Source: a virus
Length of the DNA: 64,000 nt
Strand: one strand, 5' to 3'
Virus record (IMG/VR): IMGVR_UViG_3300027908_000023
Coordinates: 6,369-70,368 of that record
Below the pieces are notes generated by a model. The model was given only the letters and a program-made list of their open reading frames with translations, searched no databases and was not told the origin of the DNA. The translations under genes and the position numbers were made by a program. Shown here in pieces: positions 6,207 to 51,224 of the stretch (position 1 is the first letter of the stretch; every line of letters begins with the position of its first letter).

Positions 6207-6650
6207 CTAGCGCTTTTTGAGATCGAAGGATTCCATCGTCTGCCGGCCGGACTTTAGAGCATCGCCGATCATGGCGAGCCTGGCCTCGTACATGATCTCG
6301 AACAGGGTTCTTGCCTTGGCACCGTTTTTCTTGGCCTTGTGCCAGGCAAGCAACATCTCCTGTTCGCAAAAACGCCGGCCGTCCCAATCCTGGCAGTAGC
6401 GAAACTCTGGATGGTCGCTGAACAAGGCATACAGATCGATGCGCGGGAAGCCTTCCACCTTCATGCCGTCGAACTGAGGTTCGGCTTCGCCCGTCTCAAC
6501 GATGCGATAACTGACAACCTTCTGCGACTCCTCATCGTTGGCATGGTAGACACCGCAATAGTCGCAGGCCCAGCCGGTCTGAATCTTAACGGACGGCATC
6601 GGTTTGCCGGTCCGGGGATGGAATCGTGGCTCCTGGCCGAAGACTTTCAT
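6207..6650 (-). CDS. hypothetical protein with CxxC motif
   Basis: GGAGG SD; ends in a TAG that overlaps the next SD. Confidence 0.7.
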   Translation of the reverse strand: MKVFGQEPRFHPRTGKPMPSVKIQTGWACDYCGVYHANDEESQKVVSYRIVETGEAEPQFDGMKVEGFPRIDLYALFSDHPEFRYCQDWDGRRFCEQEMLLAWHKAKKNGAKARTLFEIMYEARLAMIGDALKSGRQTMESFDLKKR

Positions 6651-9463: not shown

Positions 9464-12079
9464 TCAGAAGTGCATGGTAGCGAGATAGCGGTCGAGCATG
9501 TCATCCAGCTTCTTCTTTGCCTGTTCCAGCTGCTCCCTCTTCTCCAGGAACGTTGTGAATCGCTCGGCTGTGGCCTTCTGTGCCTGGACATCAAAACTCC
9601 CATCCGGCTTGACCGGAATCGGCACGGCAAGAACCCTCATCTTCGCCAGGGAGGCGCGGAAAGCCCGGTTGAAACTCGATTCAAAGCGCAGGACATACAG
9701 CGCGTGAAGCATGTATTCCGGGACGATCGCGGGGTCTATGATCTGAATCACCCCGCAATGATCGGTGGTGGCGAAGGGAGTTTCGGGCTGGATCAGTTTG
9801 TAGTTGAAGAGGCTATTGTCGATACTCCAGAGGATGGCAGGATGGCTGAATTCCTCGATATTGCTCTCCTCTACATACCCCATCGGCGCAACGGCATTAG
9901 CGCTGTAGAGCGGAATTTTCGTGTCGTCGTCGGTCACGTCCTTTTTCAAGACTCGCTTGCCGATGAACAGATTGAAGAAATCCTGATCGCTCAGCTTCAC
10001 TTCCCTGGTTGGCCTCTGCCGCAGAGGATTAGCGGATACGAATGATCCGTAATCGGCCAACAGCGTGTTGAATTCGGTCAGCAAGGAAGTTACCTGATCC
10101 GAGTCGGCATATTCGGCAGACTCTTCCGCGCCGGCAGCGATCCGCTCAGCGCGGGTCCACCAGCGATCAACGACCCAATGATCTTCATCTCGAAATCGCT
10201 GGATGTCTTGAATCTTGCATCGTCCCGTCCCGCTTTCAAGCAATTCCTTGGCAGCCGCGCCGACTGCGGAAAAAATCTTGTACCGCCCTTCCATCTCGGG
10301 CAAGTCGTCTTCTTCTATGTCCTCTCTCTTTACACTCCTCAATCGCTCGCCGATGTTCGTGATTAGGTAGGTGAAAACCGGCCGAGTCTGAACGTCGGCA
10401 GCATCCTGCTTCTTGGTCAATGCAAGGATATAGGTATGCTCGTTATTGGCGTAGAAGGTCTTGAGTGGAAGGGTAATGATGGCGTCAAGGTAGCACTCTC
10501 GGAGCATGTGGTTCCGCAGCTTCTTCCCGCCGACCCGTCCGAGGATGCCGTCAGGAACGATGATAAACGCGCGGCCTCCCTGTTTGAGAGACTTGATGAT
10601 CCACTCAACAGACAACCCCTCAAGCCCCAGCGCGTTGATCGGGTATTCGTTCATCGTGCGTGCGGATCGCTTGATCTCCTCCTTGATGATGCTCGACCCA
10701 CGGGTGACATAGGGCGGGTTGCTCAAAATCAGATCGTACTTCTGTTCTTCGTCCTTGATGATATGCCCGAAGGTCCCGAGGTTGTCCTTGAAGAGGGTGA
10801 ACGTCTCGTTGAATGCCCGCGCGAATTCCTGGGAGCATTGTGGGTTGGCGAAGAGGAGTTCTGCCAGATAGATCAGCATGTTCGCCTTGGCGAGGATTAT
10901 GGTCCGCTCCTCATCTCTCTCAAACCCCTTGTCGAATCCGTTCAAGACGAAAGGCGGAGAAATCACGCCACGATTACCGGGCTTATAGCAGGCGTGCATA
11001 CTCTCATTCATGTTGAGTATTTCGAGCGGGAAGCCACCAACCCCGCAATAGGGATCGCAGATCCGCTTGCCGGCGTACTGGAATGTCGGAAGATCGATAC
11101 CGGCCATGCGAATAATCGACTGGATGACCTTGCGAGGCGTGAAATACTGCCCCAATGCCTCAACTTCTTGGTTAAGAAAACTCTCGTAAATCCTCGTTTT
11201 GAACTGCTTGTCGATCTTCGTCAGCCCGCCGAACTCTTCGGCGTACTTATGAAGGTGCTCCAGCGAGCGGCGGAACAAGACGGCTTGAGAGAGATTCGCC
11301 TCGCCGTTCTCGGCGACAAAAATGGTCCCGTTTATGATAGTCGTGCCGTCTTGTGCCGGAGGGAAGAGTTTATAGATCCTCTCCCGCGAGTTCCGCGCAT
11401 AAAAATCAAGGGCATCTTCGGGGTCCGCCACCGCCTTCTGGCGAATGCGGTTGAACGCGATGTCTTCTGGCAGAACCTTCAAGTCGCTCAGAAACTTGAA
11501 GATGAACAACTCGACCACGTTGTACAGGCACTTGACGGGAGATTTCCCGGTCGCCACCCAGATCGTTTGCCATAGCCGGGTCGCCAGCGGCATCGGGTCG
11601 ATAAGTTTCGGTTGCCGAACGGTGGAATTCGTCGCTGTGATCGAGGCGTCTACTTCGTCAAGCAGGTGCTCAAGCGCCGTCGCGTTCTTCACACCGAAGG
11701 CATGAAAGACTGTCCGCAACTCGTTGCCACTGATGTCCCGAATACGCTCGCCGTTCATGGCGTTGATCCAGAACGTCTTCGTGGAATCCGTCACGATGAA
11801 AATCTTCGACAGCGCGCGGGCAACGTCGATTTCTTGAGTGATCGCCTTCTGTATCGCCTTCTCCGAGCCGAGTTCCTTCGGCTGCTTGTACTCGACAACC
11901 GCCTTAATCTTGCCGTGATGGACGACCAGGCCATCGGGCTTCTTGGCCTCAATCTTCGAGTAATCCTTTTTGGGAATGATTCCGGCGTCCTTGAGTTGCC
12001 CGAGGGTGGTGCTGCCCAGCCTGTAGTAGGTGTACTTGCCAAGCTGGAACGGGATGGTCTGAAGCAACTCTTCGCTCAT
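9464..12079 (-). CDS. Type IIG-like fused restriction endonuclease / N6-adenine methyltransferase / specificity protein
   Basis: N-terminal PD..EYK nuclease motif (KPDGL..VVEYK); GQYFTP; DPYCGVGGF (motif I); NPPY (motif IV); C-terminal TRD-like region. Confidence 0.8.
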   Translation of the reverse strand: MSEELLQTIPFQLGKYTYYRLGSTTLGQLKDAGIIPKKDYSKIEAKKPDGLVVHHGKIKAVVEYKQPKELGSEKAIQKAITQEIDVARALSKIFIVTDSTKTFWINAMNGERIRDISGNELRTVFHAFGVKNATALEHLLDEVDASITATNSTVRQPKLIDPMPLATRLWQTIWVATGKSPVKCLYNVVELFIFKFLSDLKVLPEDIAFNRIRQKAVADPEDALDFYARNSRERIYKLFPPAQDGTTIINGTIFVAENGEANLSQAVLFRRSLEHLHKYAEEFGGLTKIDKQFKTRIYESFLNQEVEALGQYFTPRKVIQSIIRMAGIDLPTFQYAGKRICDPYCGVGGFPLEILNMNESMHACYKPGNRGVISPPFVLNGFDKGFERDEERTIILAKANMLIYLAELLFANPQCSQEFARAFNETFTLFKDNLGTFGHIIKDEEQKYDLILSNPPYVTRGSSIIKEEIKRSARTMNEYPINALGLEGLSVEWIIKSLKQGGRAFIIVPDGILGRVGGKKLRNHMLRECYLDAIITLPLKTFYANNEHTYILALTKKQDAADVQTRPVFTYLITNIGERLRSVKREDIEEDDLPEMEGRYKIFSAVGAAAKELLESGTGRCKIQDIQRFRDEDHWVVDRWWTRAERIAAGAEESAEYADSDQVTSLLTEFNTLLADYGSFVSANPLRQRPTREVKLSDQDFFNLFIGKRVLKKDVTDDDTKIPLYSANAVAPMGYVEESNIEEFSHPAILWSIDNSLFNYKLIQPETPFATTDHCGVIQIIDPAIVPEYMLHALYVLRFESSFNRAFRASLAKMRVLAVPIPVKPDGSFDVQAQKATAERFTTFLEKREQLEQAKKKLDDMLDRYLATMHF

Positions 12080-30954: not shown

Positions 30955-32220
30955 GGTTAGTTCTCCTCTCCGGCCAGCCTCTTGGCTTCCGGATACTGGT
31001 GTCCCAGGTTCATGTATTCAACAGCAGACAGCGGGCGATAGAGGGCAATGGACCGTAACGCGCTCATGCGCTGCTCGCGCCAGTAGGCGAACTCGGGAAG
31101 CCCGCTCGTCCGGGCGCACCAGTCATTGAGTTGCTCAAGGCGCGATTCCAGTTGCTCCGGCATGGCGTTGGCTCCTTTGGGGCGACGGGTTGCTCTGTAG
31201 TGTTATTCGTCGGCATCGTGCCGGCATTTAACCGCGTCCACCGATTCTCCGATCTGAGGCGGACAGGTCGGGCAATAATGCCTGTCGCCGATATGGACAT
31301 AGGAGTATGGGTCGCGCGTCCATGAATTCGGCAGCGTCGCGCCGCAGCCGGCGCACAACTCCGCTCTCATCATCGGGCCGATAGTCACGCCCGCAACCAG
31401 ATATTGAGGATCGCCATAGCTTTCCTCATGCTTGCCCGTGAAGGCGTAGAGTTGTCCAGGCTGGCCGTTCGTGACATAGCGAATCGCCGACAGGCCGGTT
31501 ACTTCTTCGACGAACGCCATTGCCATCTGAAGCGTTTCGCGGCGGACAAACAGCGGGTTGCGGCTGGTCTTGCTGCGATGGATGATGACGATGAAAGGGC
31601 AGTAGTTCGGATGGGTGTCTTGCTTCTGGAGGCGCTGAGCCTCATTGTCGATGTTGATGATCATGGCTTTTTTCCGTATGGTTGTCGGTTGTCTCTGTAT
31701 GGTTATTCGCTCCCCATCCACGGATATTTACCGGTGATACTTCAGAAGCGATCCGTCCGCCAGCGTGATCTGCGTTCCACGGCGAATCATCTCCTGCCCG
31801 TCCGATCCGGCCAGCACATAATAGGTCGGCTCCCAGGTGGCGGACTTCTGCTGAACCTCCACGATCTCATAGATTTCGCTGCTGATGACCAGGGCACCGG
31901 ATCGCAGCTTTACCTTGTCGCCGACGCCATAGAGGCCAAGTGTCATGGCTGAATCTCCTGATGATTGTTTCGTGTTCTCTACATGGTTATTCGCTCGCCA
32001 TCCATCCGCATTTAACCCGGTCGCAGTTTTTCCATTGAGCGCTTCCAATCCCTGAAGCAATCCTGCCAGCTATCCGCCTCATACCCGGGCGGTTGCCGGT
32101 CGATCCAGGCGACCCAGCGGGCTCGCGCTTCGGCGATCTCTGCATAGCTATCGGTGCCGAACAGCCGGGCTTCTGTGCTACCGGCAAGCGTGATGGCCTC
32201 GTTGATGAGGCGTAGTTTTG

Positions 32221-32496
32221 TCATGGTTGTTCTCTGTTGTCGGCCAGAATCGAGCCGGCCGCAAGCGATTGCTCTTCAGCCGCCATGTATTCAGCTTCAT
32301 TCGCATCATAGGTCACGTACAGAGCGACACGCTTGAGGAAATCGCCATCTCCCCACATCCAGGCCGTCGTCTCTTCATCTGCCTCATCTTCGACGTGATT
32401 GCGGATCTTGCAGGCGCGTTGAAACGCCGCCAGATCGACCGCGTTCGCGTTATCGCCCAGATCAGAAATATCCATCGTGCGGAACGTGGTTGGCAT
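32221..32496 (-). CDS. hypothetical early protein separated from its promoter by IS607
   Basis: GGGAG SD before MPTTFRT. Confidence 0.6.
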   Translation of the reverse strand: MPTTFRTMDISDLGDNANAVDLAAFQRACKIRNHVEDEADEETTAWMWGDGDFLKRVALYVTYDANEAEYMAAEEQSLAAGSILADNREQP

Positions 32497-32582
32497 CGCG
32501 ATTCTCCCGGTTATGGTTGTTCCCGTCATCCGATACCTTTCTCGCTACTCTTTGTTACCAAATCATAGCGGCATGCACCGCA

Positions 32583-33698
32583 CTATGCGGCGGGGGTATC
32601 TCCCAAAGCACGCAGGTAGATCCCGCGTGCGCCGTTGATGTCTCGATCCATCGAGACGCCATCCGAACCGTTGATCACCCGCCGACCTCCAAGGTTAGCG
32701 ATGATCTCTCCCGACCAGCTACAGGTCTTCGACGTGTAGGCTTCGTTGATGATCCGCACCGTCTTACCCTCCTGATCCGCCTTGGCTATCAACCGCATGC
32801 GGAACCGAGAATGGGCCAATCCCAACATGCTCCGCACCGACTTCTTGCGAAGCCGGCGCTTGGCACGACAGGACATTTCCTTGGCCGAGAAGGCCGGTAT
32901 ACAGATCACGTCGAAGTTGTCGAGCAAGAACCGGATCGACTTCCAGTGAAGCTCGTCGATCAGGTTGTTGATCTTTCGGCGCAGCCGATTGATCCCCAGC
33001 GTGAGCCGGCGCTTGCCACGGCCGTCCGCCTTGGCGCGCCGACCCATCAGACGATCCAGGTGGAACAACAACCGCACAATCCTTTGCTGCGACTGATCGC
33101 CGATCTTGCCGACAAGCGCGGGCGAATAGAAGGTCAGGAAGGTTCGGACGCCGGGGTCCAGCGCGACCATGCGACCTTGGTTCTCGGTCGTTTTGTGCAT
33201 GGTCACGCTGAACGATACCGACAGATACCATGCGCCATTGTCCCAGACGAGTCGGGAATCCCGATGCTGCTGGGGGACGGGTTCTGCGGCCCACAAATCC
33301 CCGGCGATTCGTGGATAGATGCCGATGGAACGATCTCCGGTCGGCTTGATCGCACTATGAGGAATAAAACAACTCTGCGTCGGATTACGCCGGCTGCGAA
33401 AATGCATCTCGAAACTCGGGATAATACCCTGCTTTACTCTGAGTTTCTGCGCCGTGAAGGCCAGGCAGGCATCCTTGACCGCAATGGATTTTACCTGAAA
33501 CGGTACGTCGCGAAACCATGCCGGCGTGCCGGACAGGATCATCTTCTTGACCTGCATCCAATGCGGCCGCGATCCATCAATACCATTGAGATACTCAATC
33601 GTCTGATTGTATGCCCAACGGCTACCGGCCATCCAGTGCCGGAACGTCTTGGCCTGCTCCGGCGTCGGCGAGAGTTTGATCCGCCGCGATTTCGTCAC
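32583..33698 (-). CDS. tnpB: TnpB RNA-guided nuclease, IS607 type with Fanzor-like rearranged RuvC
   Basis: ALDPGVRTF (RuvC-I), VICIPAF (Pro instead of Glu), NEAYTSKTCS, DRDINGA; GTG start inferred. Confidence 0.85.
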   Translation of the reverse strand: MTKSRRIKLSPTPEQAKTFRHWMAGSRWAYNQTIEYLNGIDGSRPHWMQVKKMILSGTPAWFRDVPFQVKSIAVKDACLAFTAQKLRVKQGIIPSFEMHFRSRRNPTQSCFIPHSAIKPTGDRSIGIYPRIAGDLWAAEPVPQQHRDSRLVWDNGAWYLSVSFSVTMHKTTENQGRMVALDPGVRTFLTFYSPALVGKIGDQSQQRIVRLLFHLDRLMGRRAKADGRGKRRLTLGINRLRRKINNLIDELHWKSIRFLLDNFDVICIPAFSAKEMSCRAKRRLRKKSVRSMLGLAHSRFRMRLIAKADQEGKTVRIINEAYTSKTCSWSGEIIANLGGRRVINGSDGVSMDRDINGARGIYLRALGDTPAA

Positions 33699-34230
33699 GG
33701 TACTTGCGGAGGCCGTGCATCCGGGCTCCAAAGACAGTGAGGATGGCAAGCAAGTCTCCGACAAGTTCATCGTAGGGGCCGGCATGATCGCGCTTACCGA
33801 GAACCACGATCTCGCCTCCGGCACGGCGGATCTGGTGATCGATAAGCTCGAAGCCGAACCGAGCCAATCGGTCGCGGTGGGCAACCACAACCCGCAACTT
33901 AGCGCCGCGTGCCGCGCGGTCCAGTAGGGCGAGCAATCCTTTTCGCTTGAAGTTGAGCCCGCTGCCGATGTCGCTGACGATCTCTGCGTCATGATACTTG
34001 CTCTTGAGGTATTCCACCTGTCTGGCCAGGTCGTCCTTCTGCCTGTGACTACTCACCCGGGCATACAGAATCGTGATCGTCTCGCCACTCAGGAAACTCG
34101 ATATGTCAAAATGCCTTGCTCCGTTCGGCATCCGGATGCACGGTATCGTACCGTTATCCGCATACTTGCGGAGCGTGTTGGGGTGAAGTCCGGTTGCCAG
34201 CACGGCCTTTCGTAGCGGAACGTAACTCAT
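33622..34230 (-). CDS. tnpA: IS607 serine recombinase TnpA
   Basis: MerR-like HTH (LHPNTLRKYAD) plus YARVSSHRQKDDLARQ, DIGSGLNFKRKGL, HRDRLARFGF. Confidence 0.95.
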   Translation of the reverse strand: MSYVPLRKAVLATGLHPNTLRKYADNGTIPCIRMPNGARHFDISSFLSGETITILYARVSSHRQKDDLARQVEYLKSKYHDAEIVSDIGSGLNFKRKGLLALLDRAARGAKLRVVVAHRDRLARFGFELIDHQIRRAGGEIVVLGKRDHAGPYDELVGDLLAILTVFGARMHGLRKYRDEIAADQTLADAGAGQDVPALDGR

Positions 34231-34238
34231 GTCAGGTA

Positions 34239-34267
34239 ATGGTAGCGGAAAAGCTAACGGTTGTCAA
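34239..34267 (-). promoter_or_regulatory. IS607 sigma70-type promoter
   Basis: TTGACA-N17-TACCAT, 8 nt before the tnpA ATG. Confidence 0.65.
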
Positions 34268-34326
34268 CCTCCGACACAGAGCTATTCGCTGCCGGTCGGA
34301 GGATCTTTGCGCCGGTAGGATTTTTC

Positions 34327-35154
34327 TCATGCGGCCAGTGCGGTTTCCGCCGGCACTTCTGATGTTTCCGGTTCGCTGTCGGCCATGCGCCGCAACTCTT
34401 CCCCGAACTCGATCTCTCTCCGCCATTCGTCCCATCCGGTCAGATTCTCAACGGCCTTCTCGCCGCGCTGCCGTGCTGCCAGGGCATCGACACCAGCGCC
34501 AACCGGAGCCGCGTCATCGTTGGCGCGCCAGGCATAAGGCATCAGCGCTGCAACGGCGCGTTGCGTCCCGTTCGTGGCACGAACCACCATCGGCGCACCG
34601 TTGGCGTGAATCTCAATCGTCACTGCCGTGCCGTCGCCGGAGAAGTGCTTCAGAACCTCCAGCAGTTCGGCCAGCAGATCGGCGCTGACGTGCTGCGCGG
34701 CGACCGGTTCGCCTTTGGGCAGGACGTGATCCGTGTTCGGATAGCGCCCGTCCACGTTGCGCGGTTGTCGGACAAGGTTTGATTCCAGATCCGTGGTTGC
34801 CAGGGTTGAGACTGCTTCTCCCATGACGCAAGCCACGCTCTGGAGCGCCGGCTTGCCCTTCTTCGGGCATTCCTTGAAGGCGCGCTCGAATTCCTTTCCG
34901 GGAATTAGTGCGGTTGTCTGCCCGTTCGGCGCGGCATCCAGAGCCGGGATGGAGGGATACTCGGCAGGGTTATCGACGTTGGGCCCGGATACCCTGATGA
35001 GCCTCTTGCCGTCCGTCGCTTCGACCACATAGCCGGCCGGTTGGGTTTCCGTGGCGGGTGTCTCGGAAACCTTTACACCCGTCAAGGCGAAACGTGCCGA
35101 TTCGCTGGCCGTGATCTTGACCAGGGAAGCGAGATTGCGAGGAAGAAGAAGCAT
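34327..35154 (-). CDS. truncated DNA polymerase III beta-clamp-like protein
   Basis: RFALTGV, EATDGKRL, DGRYPNTDHVLP resemble DnaN domains II-III. Confidence 0.65.
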   Translation of the reverse strand: MLLLPRNLASLVKITASESARFALTGVKVSETPATETQPAGYVVEATDGKRLIRVSGPNVDNPAEYPSIPALDAAPNGQTTALIPGKEFERAFKECPKKGKPALQSVACVMGEAVSTLATTDLESNLVRQPRNVDGRYPNTDHVLPKGEPVAAQHVSADLLAELLEVLKHFSGDGTAVTIEIHANGAPMVVRATNGTQRAVAALMPYAWRANDDAAPVGAGVDALAARQRGEKAVENLTGWDEWRREIEFGEELRRMADSEPETSEVPAETALAA

Positions 35155-40908: not shown

Positions 40909-42230
40909 GTGACTACTCCACCGCGTTAACGCGGCGGCTTCTTGGCGGACGCTTGGCCCGTTGGCCTACGTTGACCGCCACTGGCGCAGTCCGCGCCAGT
41001 CCTCTTGCGAGGATGTTTCGAGCAGCATTGATGTCCCGATCAAGAGAGAGCCCGCAGTGATGACAGTGGTGCCATCTTACCGTGAGATCCTTGACCACCA
41101 GCGCGCCGCATTCGGAGCAGCGCTGCGTGGTTCCACGGGGATCAACCTCCACGAACCGCACTCCGGCTTTTTCAGCCTGGCAGCGCAGAACGCTCAGGAA
41201 GCCGGCCCAGCCGGCGTCACTGATCGACCGGGTGTACCTGCCGGTCGCCAACATCCCCTTGATGTCGAGCGCTTCGGCAGCGATAAACCCGGACGAGAGC
41301 ACCAAACGACGGGCGACCTGAAGGTGATGCTCGCGCCTGAGATTCTTCACGCGAGCGTGAAGTTTCTGCAAGCGCTTCACGGCCTTGCGGCGGTTCTTGC
41401 CGCCCTTCTGTTTGCGGACCATCGAGCGACCGGCGCGGCGCAGTTCAGGCAGGGCGGTCTTGAGGTAACGCGGGTTGGCTTCCGTGGTCCCCTCGCTGGT
41501 GGTCAGGAAGTGGGTCAGGCCAACGTCGATACCCACGGCAGGCAAACCGTTATCGACAATCACCACGTCGGGCAACTCACAGGAGAAGACCACGAACCAC
41601 TTGCCCGCTTCGCGCTTAATGGTGACGGTCTTGATCGTGCCTTCAACGGGCCGATGCAGCTTGACGCGAATCGTGCCGACGTGCTGGACATAGAGTTTGT
41701 TGCCGGTCAACCTGGTGCCGTCGCGGTAGGCTGGGAACTCGAAACTGTCGAAGCGGTCGCGTCCCTTGAATCGCGGAAAGCCGGCCTTGCCCGTGCCCTG
41801 GCTGACACGACGGAAGAAGTTGGCGTAGGACTTGTCGAGACGGCGCATCGTGGCTTGCGCACTGGAGAAGTTCAGGCGGGCGAAAAAGGGATTGGTGGCC
41901 CTCTGTCCCTTGAACCATCCCGATTGATCAGCATACTTCACCGAAATCCCGGTGGATTCGTAGCCGATGATTCGCTGCTCCAGACAGGCGTTGTACAGCC
42001 TGCGATGAGTTTCTAGGCAGGTAGCGAGTTCGCGCTCCTGGTTGGCGTTGGCGAACAGACGGTAGCGGAAGGCGCGGCGCATCGATTCTCTCGCGTCAGT
42101 AAACGGGCGTCCATGATGTCATCATATCCCTGGCAGACAGCGAGTCAAGAGTTGTTGGCGGATTTTATTTGAAGCGATGTCCGGCAATGGGACCGTCGCG
42201 TGAACGCGACGGTCCCATTGCCGGGAATTT
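40909..42230 (-). mobile_element. IS200/IS605-family solo-TnpB element (IS1341-like), 1322 bp
   Basis: Left-end 20-bp perfect hairpin at 42181-42224; right-end hairpin ending TCAC at 40909; no tnpA. Confidence 0.85.
40913..42082 (-). CDS. tnpB: TnpB RNA-guided nuclease
   Basis: AFRYRL, GIDVGL (D), AEAL (E), CSECG..CHHCG, DRDINAARNI (D). Confidence 0.95.
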   Translation of the reverse strand: MRRAFRYRLFANANQERELATCLETHRRLYNACLEQRIIGYESTGISVKYADQSGWFKGQRATNPFFARLNFSSAQATMRRLDKSYANFFRRVSQGTGKAGFPRFKGRDRFDSFEFPAYRDGTRLTGNKLYVQHVGTIRVKLHRPVEGTIKTVTIKREAGKWFVVFSCELPDVVIVDNGLPAVGIDVGLTHFLTTSEGTTEANPRYLKTALPELRRAGRSMVRKQKGGKNRRKAVKRLQKLHARVKNLRREHHLQVARRLVLSSGFIAAEALDIKGMLATGRYTRSISDAGWAGFLSVLRCQAEKAGVRFVEVDPRGTTQRCSECGALVVKDLTVRWHHCHHCGLSLDRDINAARNILARGLARTAPVAVNVGQRAKRPPRSRRVNAVE

Positions 42231-46570: not shown

Positions 46571-46825
46571 TTAATCTTCGCTCGGCAGGGTCGCTTCGGC
46601 GCGCTGCCAGATCGCCAGCGCGACGGCGTTCTGTGGCCGGTTCAGGTCTTTGCGGTCCTGGCAATCATAAAGCGCCATGCGCAATACAGACTCTTCGGTT
46701 TGTAGCACTGGAGTGTTTGCGTTGAAGTACGGAGCGTTAAGGATCAAGGTCGCCTGCGCCTGAAATGCTGGCGTCATCACCAGATCCGGGTCGGCCGGGA
46801 AATGGTTGCCGGTTGAATTATTCAT
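46571..46825 (-). CDS. hypothetical protein
   Basis: ATGA overlap with the portal stop. Confidence 0.6.
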   Translation of the reverse strand: MNNSTGNHFPADPDLVMTPAFQAQATLILNAPYFNANTPVLQTEESVLRMALYDCQDRKDLNRPQNAVALAIWQRAEATLPSED

Positions 46826-49215
46826 TGAGATTCCCCGTCGCGGCGCTCCATCGATCCGCCATCTGGGAACCCAGGCTCACCGTGCGCCTGGCCGTTCGCC
46901 GGCTGAATCCCATCAGGCAGCGCCGGTTGCGTCACGGCAAAAGGCAGTGATGACGGCAGTTCTCCATTAAGGCGTTTCTCGATAATCTCCGGGATGCTGA
47001 CCGGCTGCTCTGGTGCCTGCGCCGGTTGGCTGTCTGACTCTGGTGCCTTGGCCGGTTGCTCTTTTGTCTCCAGCGGCAAGCTATGCTTCACCTTGTCGCG
47101 ATTCGAGAAGATCACCCGCCGGACCGCGAGACTCTCCCCCTCCAGCCCGGATGGTCCAACATATTTTTCCGCCGTGCCGGCGCGCAAATAGCCAAGCGTG
47201 ATATGCGGCGCATAGCGATCCTGTGTCTGTACGTGCGGCAGATGATCCGCCAGGTAGGCATGGAGCGCATGCAGATCGTCTCCGCCAACGTCCACCTTCA
47301 CGACTTCACCATCACCAGTATCCGGGAAGATGGAGATACTTCCGAGCGTGAAGCTGATCGGACCAACGCCCAGAACCGTCTTGCGCACCACGTCAACGTC
47401 GTCATCGATCAAGCCATGAAGCACCGTCAGGTGATAGTCCGATCCCGCTTGTCGGCCCTTGTCGGCCAGTTCCTCATCGGGCAGCGCATCACTGAGGAGT
47501 TTGAGCTTGGAGGCTAACGGCTCACCGATGGGTAGCATTAGGCAGCCATAGCGTTTCTTGCGCTCCTCGGCCAGTTGCTTGGCTCTTTCGGGCAGTGTGA
47601 GTGTAACGCCCTGGCTCCAACTCCTGATGGGCTTGGCCTCTGGCGGCAACCACTTGAGCGGCATCGGTTGCGACGGCGAAGAGATCGGCGTGCCAGGACC
47701 ACCACCACCCGGATGGCCACCCGGTTCTGGTGGCATGCCGGGCAGCGCCGCGCCGGGTCCGACCGGCGAACCAATCGCTGATGGAGCGCCAGGCCCAGCA
47801 GCAGCCATCGGCGCGCCCGGACCACCACCACCCGGTTGCGGCGGTTGCTCTTTCATGAGTTTCGAGTAGAGTTTCTTTTCCTCTTCACTCATGGGTTCGT
47901 TGTCGAACTCGACTCTCGCTTCATCATCAGTGAGCAAACCATATTTGAACTGCTGCTCCCTGTCAGCGCGCCGCTGTTCCGGCGAGCTATCCACCGGGTT
48001 GGGCCACCATACCCTGAGTCTTTCATCCCAGAGTGTTGCTACTTTGGTTGTCACAACCGCGCCGATGTACTGGAGCTTTGGCTTGATACACTGTTCGTGG
48101 AACTGTGTCAGTGGCCCCCACATCGCTATCTGACTGCCGGCATCCTGAAGACCCGCTATCTGTTTTGGCACTCTGAAAGTGGCCAGAATGGAGTCTCTGA
48201 GTTGATCGAAACTGCCCGTGAAATCACACTCGCTGGGCATGATCTTGAGCGGCGTGAACTTGGACCCAGATGAGAGCAAGAGCGGTTTGCCGTGGTTAAA
48301 TTCTCCCTGGAACCTGGCATAGAACTTCTCATAGTAGCGCTCCAGCACGTCATCCGATGGGTCCTGATTGCCCTCCGGCATCTCGATCACGCCCAACGGT
48401 GCCAGGACGTTCTTCATGCTCCAGAATCGCGATTGGTCGATGCTCTCGCCAACATCGATCCACTCGCTGATAGCCCGTTGAGGGCTCCAACCGCCGATCT
48501 TGGAGAGCGGGCTCGGCAACTGGAAATAGACGATCTGTTCCCACGGGATAAAGAGCGTGCCGGCGCTGGTTGGGAAGGGCCGAACCACTACTTGCAGGAT
48601 GTCGTTCTGCCCGGTCTGAATCCAACACCAATGAGAGGGCACGGTCCAGAGTTCTGAGATTTGCCCCGTGTGCGGATCGGGAATCATCCACCAGAACGCT
48701 TCTCCAGACAGGCAAAGGAACTGTATCGTCTGTGCCAGGATGTCTGAGAAGCCCGCCGTGTCCCAGGTGTTTGGGCGCTTGAAGAGCCGCATCAGCGGAT
48801 GGTTCGGCGGGACGTGCGTTACCTTCTCGTGTGGCTTGATCGTGTTGTTGGTCTTGACGTAGCGCCTGATGCGCATCGCCTTATGAATCTTCGATCCGTG
48901 ATTCAGCGAATTGCCGTCGTGCTCGACCCAGGCAACCTCGGGCTCTCTTCCCCGGATGTCATCCATGATGGCGTTGACCGCAACATAGGTCCAGTGCTTG
49001 AAGTGCTGCGGAAACTCAAGCCGCTCCCGCGACCACATGCCGGGCCAGCCCCAGCCACCCGTGGCACTGGCGAGGATGCGCGAGAAGAAGGATTCTCCAA
49101 CGCTGGTTTTTGGCCGGTTGCTGGCGCGGCTGGTGATCTGGCGCTGGTGACGCCACTGGTTGGCAGCACGGCCGGCGCGTTCGACGAGAGACAGCGTGGT
49201 ATCGAGGAAGCCCAT
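46822..49215 (-). CDS. phage portal protein fused to a C-terminal 2H phosphoesterase domain
   Basis: Lies downstream of terL; portal-like motifs (LSGEAFW, GWSP, IAGL); Pro/Gly linker; HLT and HIT motifs. Confidence 0.8.
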   Translation of the reverse strand: MGFLDTTLSLVERAGRAANQWRHQRQITSRASNRPKTSVGESFFSRILASATGGWGWPGMWSRERLEFPQHFKHWTYVAVNAIMDDIRGREPEVAWVEHDGNSLNHGSKIHKAMRIRRYVKTNNTIKPHEKVTHVPPNHPLMRLFKRPNTWDTAGFSDILAQTIQFLCLSGEAFWWMIPDPHTGQISELWTVPSHWCWIQTGQNDILQVVVRPFPTSAGTLFIPWEQIVYFQLPSPLSKIGGWSPQRAISEWIDVGESIDQSRFWSMKNVLAPLGVIEMPEGNQDPSDDVLERYYEKFYARFQGEFNHGKPLLLSSGSKFTPLKIMPSECDFTGSFDQLRDSILATFRVPKQIAGLQDAGSQIAMWGPLTQFHEQCIKPKLQYIGAVVTTKVATLWDERLRVWWPNPVDSSPEQRRADREQQFKYGLLTDDEARVEFDNEPMSEEEKKLYSKLMKEQPPQPGGGGPGAPMAAAGPGAPSAIGSPVGPGAALPGMPPEPGGHPGGGGPGTPISSPSQPMPLKWLPPEAKPIRSWSQGVTLTLPERAKQLAEERKKRYGCLMLPIGEPLASKLKLLSDALPDEELADKGRQAGSDYHLTVLHGLIDDDVDVVRKTVLGVGPISFTLGSISIFPDTGDGEVVKVDVGGDDLHALHAYLADHLPHVQTQDRYAPHITLGYLRAGTAEKYVGPSGLEGESLAVRRVIFSNRDKVKHSLPLETKEQPAKAPESDSQPAQAPEQPVSIPEIIEKRLNGELPSSLPFAVTQPALPDGIQPANGQAHGEPGFPDGGSMERRDGESQ

Positions 49216-49336: not shown

Positions 49337-49675
49337 ATGACCGGCATGAACGATGATAAATCCACCAATCACGCCAGAGCCATTCGCCGATTTTCATTCC
49401 TCAAGAAGTTGAAATCGGCAAGAGAAGTGTGCAGTTTTTTCTACAGTCTCAACAACAGAATCGCTACATGGAAGCCAGACGAATATCCTATTGGCAAGAT
49501 TGATAAAATGCTCCACTATTTTGGCATGGCAGCCGAAGTCAGCCCGGTAGAACTGACTCGTCTCGATGGCTTCTATCGGCGAGTCAAGGCAAGTCTTAAT
49601 GATCGCATGGGAAAAGAATGGACGGCGAGATTCCTAGCGAAACATCCATTCGGCAAGCCAGTTAAAACCAGTTGA
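49337..49675 (+). CDS. hypothetical lower-GC protein in inverted orientation between terL and portal
   Basis: AGGAG SD; more AT-rich than its neighbours. Confidence 0.55.
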   Translation: MTGMNDDKSTNHARAIRRFSFLKKLKSAREVCSFFYSLNNRIATWKPDEYPIGKIDKMLHYFGMAAEVSPVELTRLDGFYRRVKASLNDRMGKEWTARFLAKHPFGKPVKTS

Positions 49676-51224
49676 AGACTTTCTTCCGCACCGGATAGAA
49701 GGCCAGACATAATGCATCCGCATAGTCTGGTGAACGGACGCCGCGCTTGCGCATGTCTGGTTTGCTCTCGACTTGAATCTTACCGTTGTTGAGACGCTTG
49801 TGCAGCGGCATGCTCAGTTGTGCGATCAACTGATGACAGTTCGGGATGCTGATACACTCATCATCGGGATGGGCAACACCCTGAGTCACGCGCTCATGCG
49901 TCTTCTCGAAACGTCTCCGCAACGTCCACCACATTTCATCTCTCAATCGTGCGAATAGTTCCTTCGCCTTGCGATTGTTGGCCTCCGGCCAGATGCTTTC
50001 GCTCGGGCTTGAGCCGGCCTGCACGGCGACAACCTCGAAGGAGAGTTTTGTCTCCATGTTGTTCCACACGCCCTTGACGCCGGAACCGACTCCACCCACG
50101 TCATAATAGACGACCGATACACCGTTCTTTTCGGCATGGTCGCGAGCCTTGTAGGAAGTCTGAGTTGTATCCAGGTGATTCCAGGCGATGGGGTCTTTGA
50201 CGACCGGTCCGGCACGCCAGATAAAGACACTCTCGTTATCGCCTTCATCGGCAACGTCCAGACCGGCTGACTTCTGTGCGCTCTCTTCCAGCGGCAGATT
50301 GATAGCGGAGCGAACCCATGCGGCCGGGATCGTGATGCCCTGTACGGATGCCGTATAGTCGATGTCGATGTTGCTCGCTACCGTCACTTCATCATAGGTA
50401 TCCCGCATGTGTTGATACCAGGCAGCATCCTTTCTCGGATCATCGGTCCATTTCAGAGTAAAAATACGCTCATGTGCAAAAGAGAATCGCTTGCGCGCGA
50501 ACGAGTTACCTAGACCATTAGGGGTTGAGACATTGACTCTCAATAGGGCATTGCTAAGAAGCGAACTGTCCACCAGATCAGGATGCGGGATGAAGGCGGC
50601 TTCGTCGATAAAATAAACTCCGGTACGCCCGCCGCGCCCTATACCGTCACCACCTTCGCCGCGAATCGTGGCATCATTGGTCGGATTGATCAGTTTGCCT
50701 TCGGCGGAGTGTTTCTGAAAGCTGAACCGGCGCGGCCATAGCCAGAGCGGTAAGCCACGGATCAGCATTCTGAGCTTCTCAAAAATGCTGTCCGGGTCGC
50801 CGATGGTATCGACCAGTTCCAGAATTCTACTGCCAAAGCCAACCGAGTATCCAGGTCGGAACAACCAGCCATGAATCGCATAGAGACAACACAGCCACGT
50901 AGCGCCCATCTCGCGGGATTTCTCAACGATGACTTCTTGATCGTGTCGCGTCTCCACTGCCTGGCGCTCGTGCATGGCCAGCCAACGGAGGAACTCCCGT
51001 TGCTTGGGAAACAGGTTGAACGGGATAACTTTCTCGACACCCTTGGGATCGTAGGTGTTGACCCAATGATCCGCGAACCACTCGATGGAGGCTTCGCAAT
51101 AGGCGCGCTCCAGAACGTAGCTGCCTTCCTTCTCCACCTTGTTCGCATAGGCCCAGCGCTCATCAACATTGAATCCATGAGGCGCTGTCACAGGAGTTTT
51201 CTCGGTTGATCGCATGTCGCTCAT
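49662..51224 (-). CDS. terL: terminase large subunit
   Basis: EKSREMG (Walker A), FIDEAAF (Walker B), STPNG, GLDVA and SPDYADA nuclease motifs. Confidence 0.92.
   Translation of the reverse strand: MSDMRSTEKTPVTAPHGFNVDERWAYANKVEKEGSYVLERAYCEASIEWFADHWVNTYDPKGVEKVIPFNLFPKQREFLRWLAMHERQAVETRHDQEVIVEKSREMGATWLCCLYAIHGWLFRPGYSVGFGSRILELVDTIGDPDSIFEKLRMLIRGLPLWLWPRRFSFQKHSAEGKLINPTNDATIRGEGGDGIGRGGRTGVYFIDEAAFIPHPDLVDSSLLSNALLRVNVSTPNGLGNSFARKRFSFAHERIFTLKWTDDPRKDAAWYQHMRDTYDEVTVASNIDIDYTASVQGITIPAAWVRSAINLPLEESAQKSAGLDVADEGDNESVFIWRAGPVVKDPIAWNHLDTTQTSYKARDHAEKNGVSVVYYDVGGVGSGVKGVWNNMETKLSFEVVAVQAGSSPSESIWPEANNRKAKELFARLRDEMWWTLRRRFEKTHERVTQGVAHPDDECISIPNCHQLIAQLSMPLHKRLNNGKIQVESKPDMRKRGVRSPDYADALCLAFYPVRKKVFNWF

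Follow-up and report, generated by a model that had tools for sequence, protein, structure and literature searches.

A soil phage IS607 insertion sequence encoding a Fanzor-type TnpB that lacks the zinc finger

A tnpB gene carried by a soil phage raises the question of whether a TnpB with proline at the RuvC-II glutamate position and a degenerate zinc finger is a Fanzor-type nuclease (TnpB2/pro-Fanzor) belonging to an intact IS607 element, and whether its guide and target can be read from the flanking DNA. The window analysed here is a stretch of 64,000 nucleotides (positions 6,369 to 70,368) from the 98.5-kb IMG/VR virus record IMGVR_UViG_3300027908_000023, derived from a soil metagenome. It contains a portal gene (46822–49215) and a large terminase gene (49662–51224), which together with its source as a virus record identify it as phage, in agreement with the original prediction. 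The window also encodes a clamp-loader-like ATPase and a DNA methyltransferase, and the minus strand holds nearly all of its genes; an 871-aa protein with DNA-methyltransferase PHROG hits (9464–12079, minus strand) is a large phage-encoded methylase for which an anti-restriction function is possible. A megablast comparison of 25 kb of the window with GenBank phages returned no match. The same phage is present in a second data set (ENA ERZ28653432 scaffold_31, 132,578 bp; locus L004), with an identical TnpB and the insertion sequence at the same place; this scaffold is longer than the 98.5-kb record (CheckV 82%) and may be a more complete genome.

The phage has two further TnpB genes. One (40913–42082, minus strand; L002 1426–2595) encodes a canonical 389-aa protein with a DVG motif, DRDINAA, a RuvC-II glutamate at its usual site (AAEAL) and an intact CxxC..CxxC, and no transposase is visible alongside it. 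The other, beyond the end of the window (L003 1243–2661; G000:C1 about 84018–85436), encodes 472 aa with a canonical D/E/D triad and a zinc finger, such that a single phage of about 100–130 kb carries three unrelated TnpB elements.

The tnpB gene of interest occupies 32583–33698 on the minus strand, exactly where it had been placed, and its ORF translates to 371 aa plus a stop. The GTG start at 33698 is assumed from alignment with homologues; 24 codons further upstream there is an ATG in the same frame. The product matches NF040570 (guided_TnpB) with 108 bits (cutoff 100) and contains HTH_OrfB_IS605 and Cas12f1-like_TNB domains. Its key motifs are ALDPGV (Asp181, codon 33158–33156), VICIPAF (Pro268, 32897–32895), INEAYTS (Glu319, 32744–32742) and MDRDING (Asp353, 32642–32640), all on the minus strand. 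[quoted passage not shown] In a phmmer search of all PDB chains the first match is mimivirus L79, the Fanzor2 protein ApmFz2 (9b0l; E 2.9e-21), with canonical TnpB and Cas12f chains reaching only ~1e-5, and residues D181, P268, E319 and D353 align to D324, G416, E467 and D501 of 9b0l. The ApmFz2 structure shows a D324/E467/D501 triad (PMC11832414), and the D324A and E467A substitutions abolish its cleavage (PMC10530073). An AlphaFold2 model of the phage protein built with 26 homologues (mean pLDDT 85.3) also has 9b0l as its top Foldseek match in the PDB, followed by the ISFba1 and ISDra2 TnpB proteins and Cas12f.

This arrangement extends across the family. The four columns read D, P, E and D in all 121 of the nearest homologues, and among 151 representatives clustered at 50% identity these residues occur in 147, 144, 146 and 144, respectively, with the proline of the DPG motif (Pro182) present in 141; given this constancy, the active-site signature is not a chance occurrence. 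Replacement of the RuvC-II glutamate by proline or glycine together with a displaced glutamate defines 'TnpB2' (Jiang 2023, PMC10530073), and 'pro-Fanzor' denotes the displaced-glutamate site with DPG and an IS607 association (Yoon 2023, PMC10711439). The phage protein has the proline, an alternative glutamate downstream (taken for TnpB2 as about 45–50 residues beyond the old site), both aspartates and the DPG of RuvC-I, which supports assigning it to the TnpB2/pro-Fanzor type; the original prediction had read the signature in the same way.

The IS607 association, likewise predicted, is borne out by the neighboring gene. The tnpA gene (33622–34230, minus strand) lies upstream of tnpB on the same strand with a 77-nt overlap, and encodes a 202-aa IS607 serine recombinase with an N-terminal MerR-like HTH (residues 12–41) and a resolvase catalytic domain (PF00239, 5e-19; residues 54–176); it scores 162.5 bits against NF033518 (transpos_IS607; cutoff 110). 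TnpB itself scores just 35 bits against NF038280 (IS607_TnpB; cutoff 350), and this shortfall was considered as an argument against IS607 membership and rejected because the model is a narrow 'exception' model. A putative sigma-70-like promoter (TTGACA-17-TACCAT; 34239–34267, minus strand) matching the consensus at 10/12 positions is located at the left end just upstream of tnpA, and its TTGACA box is kept in the related elements L005 and L009. The gene pair is flanked on one side by a 275-aa gene (35154..34327, minus strand) with weak sliding-clamp/RusA-like hits and on the other by a small ORF, and the element is co-oriented with the phage genes of this replication-gene region.

Alignment with related elements places the whole element at 32530–34269 (minus strand), a length of 1,740 bp that counts the GG at both junctions (34269–34268 and 32531–32530), one of which is supplied by the target. 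At the right end, similarity to three elements with 65–70% identity passes the tnpB stop codon, runs for ~50 nt more and stops abruptly after ..AGCGAG-A-AAGGTATCGG at 32530, with conservation ceasing exactly after ..GGTATCGG. Across the family, about 116 loci have an (A/G/T)TCGG terminus after the tnpB stop, with unrelated sequence beyond, and the TCGG is invariant in 45/45 aligned elements. At the left end, conservation starts at GG followed by TTGACAAC (34269/34267) in L005 and L009, and from GGTTGAC or GGTTAGC in other family members, with variable bases before. Two relatives assembled as collapsed repeats, of 1,739 and 1,750 bp, begin with GGTT.. and finish with ..ATCGG. Apart from the GG, the flanks have nothing in common, and the longest inverted repeat of the region links the two ends (32527–32548 with 34242–34263; 22 nt, 77%). 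The element has GG at both junctions and imperfect terminal inverted repeats without a longer target duplication, in keeping with IS607 elements, in which crossover occurs at GG dinucleotides (PMC10711439). It appears to be an intact and probably functional insertion sequence, situated in the replication-gene region of the phage.

The phage has one copy of the element. Relatives of the upstream 275-aa protein were searched in IMG/VR for an uninterrupted site and none was found, and contigs of four sequencing runs yielded no empty site. The runs listed as containing the locus are two soil-metagenome DNA runs, which may be the source of this DNA, and include no RNA run; their contigs have the IS-bearing form only, and two reported 'joints' were disregarded, having 21-nt sides and lying in unrelated short contigs. 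A suggestion that the element had inserted at the downstream gene's start codon (ATG 32529) was rejected, as the gene caller and a better Shine-Dalgarno sequence place the start at Met12 (32496), and the insertion is thus intergenic. The right end puts GAGAAAGG (32537–32544) 7–14 nt before ATG 32529, the called start at Met12 has its own GGGAGA site, and the element may still alter the 5′ UTR of this gene.

The 3′ part of tnpB and the right end together encode a predicted RNA that is conserved, structured and covarying, and the adjoining flank would supply its guide. In an alignment of 45 elements covering the final 220 nt as far as the right end, RNAalifold yields two helices, both intact in the window copy. 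Helix 1 (32608–32630, minus strand) is within the codons for GARGIYLRA (in the family, G-A-R-G-I-F/Y-L-R-A) and covaries at synonymous third-codon positions, with one pair occurring as AU13, UG9, GU8, UA5, CG5 and GC3. Helix 2 is a long-range pairing between GAUAC (32596–32600) and GUAUC (32532–32536), both on the minus strand, with the 3′ arm immediately preceding the GG that terminates the right end; 97% of its cells are paired and compensatory changes occur in 3/5 pairs. Overall, 94.9% of helix cells are paired compared with 78.1% in shuffles, and the covariation score is 0.459 versus 0.133 in shuffles (0/500 reach it) and at most 0.082 with partners slid by 1–3 columns. A covariance model (R1) made from 38 elements, leaving out the window and three close kin, has a single match in the window at 32530–32638 on the minus strand (67.4 bits, E about 1e-12, a score that comes partly from conserved coding sequence). 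This segment would be the 3′ portion of the omegaRNA/reRNA scaffold; it overlaps the last 18 tnpB codons and extends as far as the right end, and by analogy the RNA probably begins near 32680–32700. An Rfam scan of 31500–35000 found no omegaRNA family and just a sub-threshold chance match to the P10 sRNA. The reRNA of ISXfa1 requires a long-range pseudoknot (Yoon 2023, PMC10711439), to which helix 2, located beside the guide, corresponds.

The predicted guide is ATGACGGGAACAACCATAAC (32510–32529, minus strand), immediately 3′ of the conserved right end, and it has no other occurrence in the window with up to 3 mismatches allowed. The original prediction had the right end and this guide flank (ATGACGGGAAC...) correct, but its left end needs to be moved 3 nt further in, to GG followed by TTGACA, and the TAM side that it gave as ..GTCGG then reads GAGG. 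Under the corrected boundary the TAM-side flank is ..GTGTCGGA+GG, and the predicted TAM, GAGG (34268–34271, minus strand), is composed of the G and A of the left flank and the crossover GG. The two bases preceding the left GG are purines in related elements (A9/G6/C1 and G9/A6/T1 in 16 non-redundant elements), and earlier regex lists of left flanks have the same bias, although these overlap the 16-element set and are not an independent count; altogether about 16–20 left flanks obtained by motif search underlie the TAM assignment. GAGG fits this purine-purine-GG pattern and the alternative TCGG does not. Because the right end is invariantly TCGG, a TAM of the RRGG type would mark the empty site and spare the occupied one. 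G-rich TAMs are documented in both characterised relatives, with the ISXfa1 IS607 TnpB depleting GGG (PMC10711439) and ApmFz2 having TGGG (PMC10530073), and the TAM is taken to be of the RRGG type, GAGG in this phage.

The position of the left end deserves comment, as the boundary first proposed, between 34271 and 34270, would give a TAM side of ..TGTGTCGG and an element beginning AGGTTGACA. A GG is also present at 34272–34271, and the GG-crossover rule alone cannot decide between the two. However, relatives are conserved from GGTTGAC or GGTTAGC with variable bases before it, the collapsed-repeat contigs begin exactly at GGTT, and a TCGG would be off-pattern, with C and T each found in 1/16 elements at those positions; the outer boundary is therefore rather unlikely. 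The two versions predict different empty-site joints (..GTGTCGG joined to ATGACG for the outer boundary, ..GTCGGAGG joined to ATGACG for the corrected one), and exact-pattern scans of viral and metagenome contigs found neither.

The zinc-finger region bears directly on whether the nuclease is active. The four zinc-finger positions are C326, S329, G344 and G347 (CSWSG..NGSDG), with 1/4 cysteines kept, so that the degeneracy originally described is present. The protein could accordingly be viewed as a decaying or nuclease-dead relic that has lost three of four cysteines and has proline at the RuvC-II glutamate, with the element a fossil fixed in the phage; its single copy and the failure to find an empty site in viral and metagenome contigs would be compatible with this. 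The homologues argue otherwise. An exhaustive search gives 962 clusters at 50% identity (E≤1e-30). In the aligned homologues, nearer relatives read TSKT-[CAVN]-SW-[ST]-GE ... DG and distant ones retain CxxC...CxxC. In a FastTree phylogeny of 150 sequences, rooted with the two canonical TnpBs of the phage and containing no bona fide eukaryotic Fanzors, the sequences without the finger fall into a single clade (70 rows, SH-like support 99) that arises within finger-bearing TnpBs with DPG and the alternative glutamate. The clade sharing this motif spans several phyla and is multi-copy in genomes, D181, E319 and D353 are invariant in the 121 nearest homologues, tnpA and both omegaRNA helices are intact in the phage copy, the zinc-finger region is modelled at pLDDT 75–86, and loss of the finger in large TnpB branches is also described by Altae-Tran 2023. 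Loss of the finger might impair the nuclease, although conservation throughout the clade argues against this. Judged from these alignments and the tree, loss of the zinc finger is a trait of the clade, neither decay nor a peculiarity of the phage copy, and a relic is unlikely.

The tree places the window TnpB inside the superclade with DPG and the alternative glutamate, in the derived subclade without the finger and not among the lineages nearest to giant-virus genes; the Fanzor2-like genes of giant viruses (GVMAG) branch with more basal finger-bearing lineages. Within the subclade it clusters with L010, L005 and L009 (support 99), each of which lies on a phage-like contig. The three closest relatives (65–70% identity; L008/L010 on a 172-kb IMG/VR contig, L009 and L005) are also located in phage replication/recombination modules, with RecA and a 5′-3′ exonuclease, or ERF and YqaJ, as neighbors; at L008, tnpA is called with only 155 aa and the left end appears to differ. 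Among genomes, relatives are found in Chloroflexota, Cyanobacteriota, Pseudomonadota (Chromatiaceae, Thiotrichaceae), Poribacteria, Latescibacterota and Bacteroidota, and at least 109 are carried on IMG/VR contigs. Genomes often have several copies, including at least six loci in one Caldilineaceae chromosome and four in Anabaenopsis, indicating that the family is mobile. A 222-kb viral contig (IMGVR_UViG_3300045988_152231; L037, L038, L039) has at least three copies of a finger-less relative with ~40% identity, and the family can thus multiply within a single large phage genome.

The published search for pro-Fanzors required CxxC..CxxC and described them as exclusively cyanobacterial (Yoon 2023, PMC10711439). 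The phage protein has the E319-to-C326 spacing of that pattern, in which the glutamate is six residues before the finger, but its finger positions are C..S / G..G and its source is a phage from a soil metagenome and not a cyanobacterium. A clade lacking the finger would be invisible to such a pattern. A survey of all TnpBs (Altae-Tran 2023) reported clades with rearranged RuvC-II, branches enriched in viruses, and some large branches from which the zinc finger has been lost; given its scope and the losses it reports, the finger-less clade is very probably within that census.

The most probable reading by a wide measure is that this is an IS607/OMEGA mobile element with a TnpB2/pro-Fanzor nuclease, whose anatomy is read from the DNA; its RNA 5′ end and TAM are predictions, and its cleavage and homing are extrapolated from characterised relatives. 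TnpA would excise and insert the element as double-stranded DNA by crossover at GG dinucleotides. A transcript covering the 3′ part of tnpB together with the right end would give an omegaRNA with a scaffold ending ..GUAUCGG and the adjacent phage flank (ATGACGGGAAC...) as its guide. The TnpB active site would be composed of Asp181 (DPG), Glu319 (displaced, on the beta-5 side) and Asp353, operating without a zinc finger, and TnpB with its omegaRNA would cut the element-free allele at GAGG followed by ATGACGGG..., while the right-end junction (..TATCGG plus guide) would be spared, since TC stands there in place of the purines of the TAM. Repair from an IS-bearing copy would then follow in an emptied donor or in a co-infecting phage genome free of the IS, so that the element is kept and spread by homing, which in a phage would take place mainly between co-infecting or replicating genomes. 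That TnpB is instead an RNA-guided DNA binder recruited by the phage for regulation or inter-phage conflict (TldR-like), as the three TnpB genes, the co-orientation with phage genes and the closest relatives all being on phage-like contigs might suggest, is very improbable, since exapted TnpBs typically lose the catalytic triad (PMC10691335) that is conserved here, and its own TnpA, both IS ends and the flank-derived guide form a standard mobile architecture.

The element belongs to a large and already surveyed family, so that it serves as a good specimen and does not constitute a new kind of system. It is a clean natural example of a Fanzor-type (TnpB2/pro-Fanzor) nuclease, in which the transposase, guide RNA module, predicted target and two element ends can all be read, and with this anatomy the TAM, guide and catalytic mutants are directly testable. 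The Fanzor-like site of DPG and displaced glutamate is also found in a big clade without the zinc finger, indicating that the finger is dispensable for maintaining the lineage; this clade extends well beyond cyanobacteria and is often met on phage contigs, which bears on published ideas of Fanzor origin. Genome-editing groups could also take an interest in a predicted RNA-guided nuclease of 371 aa that is zinc-free and has a G-rich TAM. A more speculative proposal, which we regard as possible but doubtful, is that the finger-less TnpBs with DPG and the alternative glutamate constitute a large unnamed sister assemblage of the 'pro-Fanzors', missed by the zinc-finger-requiring search of Yoon 2023. 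If so, the Fanzor-type active site would be widespread across bacterial phyla and trafficked by phages, the phage lineage (window, L010, L005 and L009) would use an RNA-guided homing drive between co-infecting genomes, the argument for an exclusively cyanobacterial origin of Fanzors would be weakened, and a 371-aa zinc-independent nuclease with an RRGG TAM, probably without collateral cleavage, would be on offer.

Among known systems, the TnpB2/pro-Fanzor proteins (PMC10530073; PMC10711439) share with the phage TnpB the DPG of RuvC-I, proline at the canonical RuvC-II glutamate, the alternative glutamate six residues before the first zinc-finger position, an IS607 serine-recombinase partner with GG junctions, and a guide RNA derived from the right end with a long-range helix next to the guide. 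They differ in that the phage protein is without the CxxC..CxxC zinc finger, is phage-borne, and belongs to a derived subclade that extends beyond cyanobacteria to Chloroflexota, Pseudomonadota, Poribacteria and others. ApmFz2 of Acanthamoeba polyphaga mimivirus (Fanzor2; PDB 9b0l) is the best PDB match both by sequence (E 2.9e-21) and by Foldseek (E 1.5e-19), and its triad aligns residue by residue; however, identity is ~22%, it is 520 aa long compared with 371 aa, and it has glycine instead of proline at the old glutamate site, an intact zinc finger and an extra N-terminal domain with an NLS.

The IS607 TnpB-reRNA system of ISXfa1 (Xylella fastidiosa) has, by its published description, the same IS607 architecture and GG crossover, with a reRNA of about 150 nt that reaches past the right end, pseudoknot-type long-range pairing near the guide and a G-rich TAM (GGG); its activity has been demonstrated, whereas that of the phage element is predicted. 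The canonical IS200/IS605 TnpB proteins (ISDra2; PDB 8exa/8h1j) have the same WED/REC/RuvC fold (TM about 0.6–0.7) and an omegaRNA encoded at the 3′ end of the gene, but match the phage TnpB by sequence at an E value of only ~1e-5, and in contrast to it have a zinc finger and the glutamate on beta-4, recognise a T-rich TAM, and are partnered by a Y1 transposase in elements that move as a single strand by peel-and-paste transposition.
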